Source: an uncultured Ignavibacteriaceae bacterium
Lineage (GTDB): Bacteria; Bacteroidota; Ignavibacteria; Ignavibacteriales; Ignavibacteriaceae
Assembly (NCBI GenBank): GCA_964625575.1
Contig: CAZVBQ010000017.1
Span: 7,628 to 71,627, forward strand
Direction of reading: 5' to 3'
DNA length: 64,000 bases
Below, one piece after another: positions 56,491-56,632 of the stretch (its first letter is position 1; the number at the start of each line of letters is the position of its first letter). The position numbers were made by a program, and so were the translations under genes. The notes under the pieces are model-generated. The model saw nothing but the letters and a program-made list of their open reading frames with translations, had not been told where the DNA came from and did no database searches.

Positions 56491-56632
56491 TGTTAGGTGT
56501 GATCCGCCTGTGGCGGAGTGAAGGGTGAAGTAGTCATACATCAAACTTCATTCTTCATACAAAAACTTCACAGTTCATACTTCATACAAAAACTTCACAG
56601 TTCACCTCGCCGCGGCGAGTCACAGTTCACAC
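56491..56632. repeat. 3'-UTR heptamer arrays with two GC palindromes
   Basis: TCCGCCTGTGGCGGA at 56503-56517. CTCGCCGCGGCGAG at 56606-56619, flanked by perfect TCACAGTTCAC direct repeats (56595-56605 and 56620-56630). CATACTT/CACAGTT heptamers lie in between. Confidence 0.65.

Follow-up and report, generated by a model that had tools for sequence, protein, structure and literature searches.

Minute GC-rich hairpins in heptamer arrays downstream of stop codons in an Ignavibacteria-type genome

Can a palindrome of 14–15 nucleotides (nt) be an inserted element? The question is raised by five loci in a 64,000-nt stretch of bacterial DNA (the window, C17:7628-71627), in which a GC-rich palindrome stands between direct repeats of up to 11 nt, an arrangement that an earlier note on the stretch likened to a target-site duplication. 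The window belongs to contig C17 of genome G000, a draft assembly of 3.67 Mb in 53 contigs with a GC content of 46.7% and of Ignavibacteria-type lineage; coordinates given without a contig are those of the window. The palindrome forms a hairpin that recurs through the genome far above chance, that is framed by a fixed tetranucleotide, and that lies preferentially just past stop codons in the sense orientation. On the comparisons below, we consider it somewhat probable that these palindromes are a minute non-autonomous hairpin repeat, of the same kind as REP, SRM and cyanobacterial SDR sequences, which has colonised NTGRRNT arrays in 3′ untranslated regions (UTRs). The five loci read as originally described, including the scores of their flanking repeats:

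29866-29901: hairpin locus, direct repeat 10/11
48632-48668: hairpin locus, direct repeat 9/11
56503-56517: hairpin locus, looser flanks
56595-56630: hairpin locus, TCACAGTTCAC / CTCGCCGCGGCGAG / TCACAGTTCAC, direct repeat 11/11
59974-60010: hairpin locus, TCATACTTCAT / TCCGCCGCAGGCGGA / TCATACTTCAT, direct repeat 11/11

Abundance and array context

A census was made of every perfect hairpin in the genome with a 6-bp stem and a loop of 2–4 nt. The average is about one hairpin per stem (4,344 hairpins for 4,096 stems), compared with 81 for the stem TCCGCC and 23 for CTCGCC. The reversed palindrome AGGCGG..CCGCCT, used as a control for the surveyed pattern TCCGCC-N2-3-GGCGGA, is present in a single copy. 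The variant CTCGCC-N2-3-GGCGAG shares the hairpin design, and TTCGCC hairpins number five. These stem variants are compensatory (TCCGCC/GGCGGA, CTCGCC/GGCGAG and TTCGCC/GGCGAA).

Tandem Repeats Finder identified 573 arrays of period 7, 255 of period 8 and 326 of period 9 in G000, built from varied words. The placing of the flanks within 7-nt periodic arrays, already proposed for the window, extends to the genome: a flank of 7-nt periodicity is present at 66 of 101 hairpins, compared with 0.8% of random 21-mers. Oriented by the G-rich flank, the array word is NTGRRNT, and TCCGCC copies occur among words as varied as GTGAAGG, ATGAAGT, GGGGTTT, GGTGTTA and others.

A four-nucleotide restart

In a position matrix, every hairpin occupies one fixed phase of the word and is framed on both sides by NTGR, or by YCAN when the C-rich strand is read. 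Its two adjoining 4-mers agree as direct repeats in 61 of 102 copies and as inverted repeats in 3 of 102, and the array heptad resumes 4 nt back (phase offset 3, equivalent to −4) in 57 of the 58 copies whose phase can be resolved. This restart is the same for 14-nt and 15-nt palindromes, so the palindrome is not simply two array words. The palindrome plus 4 nt (18–19 nt) looks as if set into a continuous array, whose 7-nt period generates the 11-nt direct repeats (4 + 7), and exact flank duplications of at least 4 nt (4, or 11 = 4 + 7) accompany 45 of 77 TCCGCC copies, compared with approximately 0.4% of random positions. The target-site-duplication likeness thus stands as far as an insert-like sequence between duplicated flanks is concerned, but the duplication is limited to 4 nt (NTGR/YCAN), the other 7 nt being the array repeat. 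Taken whole, the flanking 11-mers are no more alike than array neighbours, with a mean identity of 7.1/11 compared with 8.8/11 for in-phase 11-mers of hairpin-free arrays (3.1/11 for out-of-phase neighbours); the specific feature is the 4-nt restart.

Different hairpins can be stacked with the tetranucleotide alone between them, as in TCAC-CTCGCC..-TCAC-TCCGCC..-TCAC. The CTCGCC subfamily forms a conserved module of approximately 45 nt, with TTCACAGTTCAC before and TCACAGTTCACACTT after the palindrome in about 20 copies. Being common to different loci, these flanks are not independent target sites, which corrects the earlier description of flanks as differing between loci. The module, in which the palindrome plus GTGA separates AAGTGTGAACTGTGA from ACTGTGAAG, is filled about 21 times; the empty form predicted from it, AAGTGTGAACTGTGAACTGTGAAG, was counted about 10 times. 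Stacking, the conserved CTCGCC module, and the empty and filled forms fit insertion. In addition, loop sequence co-varies with flank orientation (roughly 42 versus 11 for the four commonest loop/reverse-complement pairs), which indicates that the element has polarity.

The hairpin is not an insertion-sequence (IS) target-site duplication. A related possibility is a miniature derivative of a DDE transposon, composed of two abutting 7-bp terminal inverted repeats or left as a footprint of excision; the 4-bp target-site duplication would then be a true one. Direct duplications of 4 nt are typical of several IS families, and two inverted ends set back to back could make up the palindrome. However, the draft assembly contains no longer element with TCCGCC.../...GGCGGA ends and matching 4-mers (the best pair agrees at 8 of 14 bases), the NTGR target is non-palindromic, and the covariation of loop and flank argues for a strand-specific process. 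Known transposase binding sites are also far longer than ends of 7 bp, and we regard this derivation as improbable.

The same architecture could arise with no transposition at all, if the hairpin were a module of the arrays that spreads with its neighbouring words by slippage, unequal recombination and gene conversion and if the restart were inherited from an ancestral NTGR-palindrome-NTGR unit. Such a history would suit the CTCGCC subfamily, which always has the same flank of approximately 15 nt on each side, and the existence of arrays without the palindrome elsewhere (genome G022 has 414 TGA-heptad hits and 2 palindromes). On contig C9, a hairpin-bounded block distinguishes two paralogous arrays, as expected from inter-hairpin recombination. 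It accounts less well for TCCGCC in many different words, where the local word keeps its phase on both sides, for two different hairpins stacked with only a 4-mer between them, and for palindromes in array-free contexts (tRNA fragments, coding DNA and other phyla). On this evidence a purely array-borne origin is unlikely.

Placement downstream of genes

The position of the hairpins relative to genes, based on crude open reading frame (ORF) calls, is strongly asymmetric. Divergent intergenic regions contain no copies, convergent regions 26 and co-directional regions 42. Within 30 nt past the stop of a long ORF, 37 oriented copies have their TGA strand as the sense strand of the upstream gene and 2 are antisense; within 60 nt the counts are 49 and 4. 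The orientation check proposed for all copies therefore gives a clear polarity. Stop-to-hairpin distances concentrate in two series (0, 7 and 14 nt; 6 and 13 nt), so the array often supplies the stop codon in use or directly adjoins it.

Within the window, the order is stop codon, arrays and then a separate canonical terminator. The hairpins and related features are as follows:

29877..29890, minus strand: hairpin TCCGCCGCGGCGGA, flank match 10/11, 7 nt beyond the stop of gene 29898-31241 (outer-membrane efflux, OEP)
48643..48657, plus strand: hairpin TCCGCCTGCGGCGGA, flanked by arrays of GTGAAGG (four copies) and CTGAAGG (three copies)
56450..56632, minus strand: entire 3′ UTR of the adhesin gene
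56503..56517, plus strand: hairpin TCCGCCTGTGGCGGA in opposite orientation, the distal arm of the 3′-UTR foldback, adjoining the terminator
56595..56630, minus strand: composite module with GTGAACTGTGA on both sides of the hairpin; about 20 genome copies with the same flanks
56606..56619, minus strand: hairpin CTCGCCGCGGCGAG, variant stem, 13 nt past the TAA stop at 56633-56635
59893..60051, minus strand: 3′ UTR of the MarR-family gene, word arrays and hairpin from stop to terminator; terminator stem 59906-59925
59985..59999, minus strand: hairpin TCCGCCGCAGGCGGA, flank repeat 11/11, which is ATGAAGTATGA on the minus strand

The gene ending at 56633-56635 is a minus-strand adhesin gene of the type IX secretion system (T9SS). 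Its stop is followed by the TGA-word array with one hairpin, then by inverted words with a second hairpin, and then by a canonical intrinsic terminator (stem 56460-56479, U-run 56450-56459); this 3′ UTR is predicted to fold into a single long hairpin (−72 kcal/mol, z −7.3). Over the 105 nt past the stop at 56633, the minus strand contains 11 TGA triplets, distributed over all three frames, close to the 12 or so counted earlier; shuffles of the same 105 nt average 2.8 and reach 10 at most. The MarR-family gene 60052-60501 has the hairpin 59985..59999 in its 3′ UTR, and this UTR is likewise predicted to fold as a long stable hairpin (z −5.2). The hairpin at 48643..48657 lies in frame, in a stop-free orientation, within the minus-strand aconitase-family gene 48036-50039.

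NTGR words, and no U-run, come directly after the hairpins, and the canonical terminator lies 40–130 nt beyond, so the identity of the hairpins as intrinsic (Rho-independent) terminators is ruled out. A K-turn (C/D-box-like) reading of UGA-hairpin-NUGA was also dropped, because 2 nt separate the stem from GA and a K-turn needs 3.

Two neighbouring features of the window consist of other words. A separate foldback at 56331-56399 (AGTGGCGAGTAGTG.. and five copies of GTTGCGC) lies between the adhesin terminator and the promoter region of a glyoxalase gene; this insert of approximately 100 nt is absent from the corresponding spacer of the relative G002, which is otherwise approximately 97% identical. 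Arrays of 9-nt words at 47874-48026 and 50605-50761 (CCGCAAAGG and its complement TCCTTTGCG) flank genes of the citrate-lyase/homoaconitase operon.

A functional 3′-UTR element, in which the GC hairpin and the UGA words act in the transcript, could explain the placement. It might protect against exonucleases as REPs of E. coli do, stall or release ribosomes past the stop, or insulate against read-through in three frames. It agrees with the sense bias of 37 to 2 within 30 nt of the stop, with the presence of at least one upstream gene at every site and the avoidance of divergent promoter regions, with a location past the stop and ahead of the true terminator, with the long stable folds, and with compensatory stem variants. 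However, orthologous sites are not conserved: in seven species of the same genus the stop leads to the terminator, and the arrays of three carriers are unrelated, one of them without a hairpin. Copies also lie in frame within a coding region and in tRNA-derived fragments beside nuclease genes, and the exact stem sequence, not merely the structure, is kept in at least six phyla while the reversed palindrome is absent. An Rfam search returned only tRNA at gathering thresholds and, for the locus region, sub-threshold matches driven by the terminator, leaving the element with no matching family. A purely transcript-level identity is accordingly given a low probability.

Turnover among relatives

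G000 and its two closest relatives contain 81, 126 and 67 palindromes. Eight other species of the same genus have 0–3, and some other genera and families have 24–74. TGA-heptad arrays are also patchy and can lack the palindrome, as in G022. At the orthologous MarR 3′ UTR, seven same-genus outgroups have no arrays and a terminator approximately 10–25 nt past the stop, whereas the filling, of 100–130 nt, differs among all three carriers. The arrays of G002 and G005 at this site differ from that of G000, and the G002 filling has no hairpin. The adhesin/glyoxalase spacer of G002 likewise has other words and no hairpin, beside a promoter region that is approximately 97% identical. The syntenic G002 contig aligns at 73–83% identity, with its arrays wholly turned over. 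From these alignments, the pattern indicates lineage-specific invasion and rapid turnover, unlike conservation. In the suggested comparison of empty and filled sites, the outgroups are array-free, and the sister species are too diverged for precise empty sites.

Occurrence in other phyla

A cross-phylum scan for TGATCCGCC-N2-3-GGCGGANTGA, with one genome per species, yielded at least 112 loci. Over whole genomes, the bare palindrome (reversed control in parentheses) numbers 117 (4) in WOR-3, 169 (0) in a metagenome-assembled genome (MAG) of Bacteroidia, 186 (2) and 35 (1) in two Nitrospirae, 251 (12) in a Planctomycetes MAG and 86 (0) in Desulfobacterales. Among the matches listed, the unconstrained flank base is equal on both sides in 77 of 114 (chance, 25%), and many copies have flank repeats of 8–11/11 in heptamer arrays, in MAGs of Bacteroidia, Ignavibacteria, Verrucomicrobia, WOR-3 and Nitrospirae. 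A flank duplication of 3–5 nt or 11 nt within word arrays accompanies 14 of 31 copies in the Bacteroidia MAG. The association of palindrome with duplicated flanks, as first described, holds for G000 (45 of 77 TCCGCC copies), but in other phyla the palindrome mostly lacks them.

Two further settings of the stem were encountered. In the Desulfobacterales MAG G061 (loci L151, L154, L160, L175, L177, L181 and L183), TCCGCCTGAGGCGGA lies in the middle of a dispersed repeat of approximately 100 nt with the layout ..CCTTTGTATGAACTTTTTGA / palindrome / CTTGCTCACTAAATAGTGCATTGGCAGCCAAGG..; copies are often at contig ends and have the look of a miniature inverted-repeat transposable element. MAGs of Eubacteriales/Clostridia (L063, L085, L090, L129 and L132) contain arrays with a period of approximately 21–22 nt, in which variable GC hairpins are spaced by AATGATGA; the stems (TCGCGC, TCACGC, TTTCCGC, TCGGC, TCCGCC and others) differ by compensatory changes. 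These arrays look like a different repeat system that incidentally includes the TCCGCC stem.

A candidate partner nuclease

G000 encodes one small GIY-YIG ORF of 83–85 amino acids (C37:19805-20053, minus strand; PF01541, E = 8.5e-14). It is followed by a 3′ fragment of tRNA-Met in which TTCGCCGCGGCGAA takes the place of the T arm, and the upstream side of the ORF meets the contig end; the cassette (19700-20188) is bracketed by a duplication of approximately 65 nt. A degraded cassette at C22:51440-51698 comprises a tRNA-Met copy with TCCGCCACGGCGGA in place of the T arm, a 49-residue C-terminal remnant of a GIY-YIG protein, and an intact tRNA-Met. The closest PDB entries to the G000 protein are the UPF0213 proteins 1zg2 and 1ywl (E = 4e-7), and a search of NCBIfam with this protein gave no match.

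Homologues with 42–67% identity are followed by TCCGCC-N-GGCGGA in G031 (64%), G053 (51%) and the Nitrospirae genome G048 (42%), and TTCGCCGCGGCGAA flanks the homologues of G013, G002 and G001; more distant homologues have other stems. In G002, G013, G031 and G001 the gene stands between hairpins. The gene-side hairpin is the amplified TCCGCC in G031, G053, G048 and the degraded C22 cassette of G000, and beside the intact genes of G000, G002 and G013 it is TTCGCC, one compensated pair away. In both contexts the hairpin follows YCAN: GGTTCAA in the tRNA T-loop, and TCAC, TCAT or CCAA in the arrays. Six relatives have a homologue of at least 60% identity, and four of them belong to the seven palindrome-rich genomes (hypergeometric estimate, p ≈ 0.005). 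As a side observation, tandem arrays of three to five near-identical small GIY-YIG genes, 315–421 nt apart, occur at G029:C19:516155-517895, G012:C1:2945594-2947066 and G019:C3:546108-547159.

A precedent for such a partner is SsnA of Neisseria meningitidis, a single-domain GIY-YIG nuclease of 94 amino acids (Chenal et al. 2025, PMC11893778). SsnA binds the NTS hairpin as single-stranded DNA (ssDNA) only and in one orientation, cutting a few nucleotides upstream, and the NTS-ssnA-NTS arrangement resembles an insertion sequence (PMC11893778).

Other enzymes fared less well as candidates. G000 has one gene for a RAYT (an IS200/IS605-like Y1 transposase; PF01797, Y1_Tnp, C13:33856-34200), and REPs, like the palindromes described here, are short GC-rich extragenic hairpins of 3′ UTRs, so that the repeat might be a REP or REPIN moved by this enzyme. 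However, the gene has clusters of a different repeat on both sides (CCCCGTAGGGG..GTCGGTAG and ..CCCCGTAGGGGTGGTATGTCGGTAG..), its presence is unrelated to palindrome counts across 41 relatives, and the palindrome has neither a 5′ GTAG nor inverted doublets (3 of 102 inverted flanks), its flank consensus being NTGR on both sides. With a REP of its own and no correlation of counts, the RAYT is excluded as the source to the point that we find the idea scarcely credible. The region C13:33300-34600 is a classical REP/RAYT locus, with its own REP clusters (..CCTCCCCGTAGGGGTGGTATGTCGGTAG..) on both sides, interrupted by runs of N, and is distinct from the TCCGCC family.

On contig C9, a 6-kb island of defence type (15800-22000) lies between direct repeats of approximately 100 nt made of a mosaic of words and hairpins; its flanks differ by a hairpin-bounded block. 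Encoded in it are a PDC-M16A RecD-like helicase, a protein with TPR and cold-shock domains, and a reverse transcriptase of the DRT UG34 class whose frame contains one TAA. The island was rejected as the mobiliser and is probably a passenger. When the ORFs of 112 hairpin-bearing loci from many phyla were clustered, generic families alone recurred (receiver domains and T9SS C-terminal-domain proteins).

Proposed mechanism and its weighing

If the palindromes are a hairpin repeat that invaded the arrays, the hairpin would be copied in trans to new YCAN sites through 4 nt of microhomology, with ssDNA, RNA or templated repair as the copying intermediate. The most likely partner would be a tiny single-domain nuclease of the Ssn type. 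Sense copies at gene ends would persist since the words provide stops in all three frames. Insertion into the last codons of a gene would then be nearly harmless, and the sense bias could be explained by tolerance; an RNA-level role may exist alongside.

Several observations weigh against this account. The sense bias of 37 to 2 could also mean an RNA-level function. In samples from Nitrospirae and Planctomycetes the palindrome caps longer inverted repeats, and in a Desulfobacterales sample it lies inside the conserved repeats of approximately 100 nt, in each case without flank duplication. Precise empty sites were sought in the sister species and none was found, these species being too diverged, and near-identical strains in four metagenomes showed no informative indels at the loci, Logan contigs breaking at the hairpins. 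As for the nuclease, the intact gene of G000 adjoins TTCGCC, with its five genome copies, and not the amplified TCCGCC. Small GIY-YIG genes are present in most relatives (they are near-ubiquitous in the order) whatever the palindrome count, and in the palindrome-rich genomes G045, G042, G023, G061 and G005 they have other hairpins or none. No small GIY-YIG gene was found in G024 and G059, both incomplete MAG assemblies, and the 14 matches of the published degenerate SRM pattern in G000 contain none of the palindromes. Because of the TTCGCC mismatch, the ubiquity of the gene, the non-matching hairpins, the MAGs that lack the gene and the failure of the SRM pattern, the sequence-based link between nuclease and hairpin has only a roughly even chance of being correct.

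A bolder, joint version can be put forward tentatively, as a minority possibility. The hairpin with its tetranucleotide (18–19 nt) would be a complete mobile unit and the smallest yet seen, landing 3′ of YCAN with a duplication of 4 nt, written in trans by an Ssn-like GIY-YIG protein of approximately 85 amino acids and spread horizontally through at least six phyla; heptamer arrays, stop-codon regions and the tRNA T-loop (GGTTCAA) would serve as its safe landing sites. If true, it would give Ssn-type nucleases a transposition-like role, which would be new for them.

Short hairpin repeats such as REP, SRM and SDR abound in bacteria, and for the way they multiply the locus provides an unusually clean copying footprint, with a fixed word phase, a 4-nt duplication, strand polarity and stacking. 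It connects subjects kept apart in the literature searched, namely heptamer arrays (STRR and long simple-sequence repeats, LSSR), ultra-short hairpins, and tiny Ssn-like GIY-YIG nucleases beside tRNA genes. The fixed 4-nt restart, the sense placement just past stops and the identical stem across phyla appear to be undescribed in that literature. Should the nuclease link be correct, the expansion of SRM-type repeats would be explained, and ssDNA-specific nucleases of biotechnological interest would gain a new hairpin specificity. There are also practical effects: contigs end at the repeats in short-read assemblies, ORF calls are extended, and copies can lie in frame inside enzymes.

Comparison with known systems

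Tandem heptamers are known from STRR or long simple-sequence heptamer repeats (Mrazek 2007, as cited in PMC4679880) and from TAACTGA arrays, which are intergenic and mostly lie just upstream of start codons (MacGregor 2015, PMC4679880). Like the arrays described here, they are intergenic, provide stops in three frames in one orientation and occur in sporadic taxa, with neighbouring species lacking arrays at the same loci (PMC4679880). Here, however, the arrays lie just downstream of stop codons and use many words rather than one, and no embedded GC palindrome is described for TAACTGA arrays (PMC4679880).

Rickettsia palindromic elements (RPE) and mitochondrial GC clusters are also palindromes that lie in frame inside coding genes, as at 48643 in the window, and that come and go between relatives. 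They are much longer (approximately 100–150 bp for RPE), lie outside heptamer arrays and have no known comparable nuclease partner. The REP, BIME and REPIN-RAYT systems share short GC-rich extragenic hairpins in 3′ UTRs, mosaic clusters, copy numbers in the hundreds and a single-copy enzyme that handles ssDNA hairpins in trans; in contrast, the flanks here are direct repeats, with no GTAG and no inverted doublets, and the RAYT of G000 has another REP.

A closer likeness is found in SDR4-6 of the Nostocaceae, reportedly described by Elhai in 2008 as hairpin-forming dispersed repeats of 21–27 nt that often lie within tandem heptameric repeats. They are said to show compensatory stem changes and nested copies, to be possibly the smallest mobile elements, and to be confined to one cyanobacterial subgroup. 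The very short hairpin in tandem heptamers, the compensatory stems and the nesting would all be shared; here, 66 of 101 copies are embedded in heptads, and the host module is filled about 21 times and empty about 10 times. The sequence and phylum differ, the core is shorter (14–15 nt) and reaches at least six phyla, and the present repeat has, in addition, a flank duplication of defined length (4 nt) and a putative partner nuclease.

The Ssn/SRM system likewise has a GC-rich hairpin repeat of approximately 100 or more copies per genome, mainly extragenic and directional, together with a tiny single-domain GIY-YIG gene (83–94 amino acids) that is flanked by the hairpins and distributed patchily across phyla. 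The layouts can be set side by side: CGTCAT/TCCCGC/GMAV/GCGGGA/ATC for the NTS, and TCAY/TCCGCC/N2-3/GGCGGA/TCAY here (PMC11893778). Embedding in heptamer arrays and a 4-nt duplication are undescribed for SRMs. The cassettes of the present system differ further in lying within tRNA-derived duplications, and the amplified TCCGCC stem stands one compensated base pair from the TTCGCC beside the gene.

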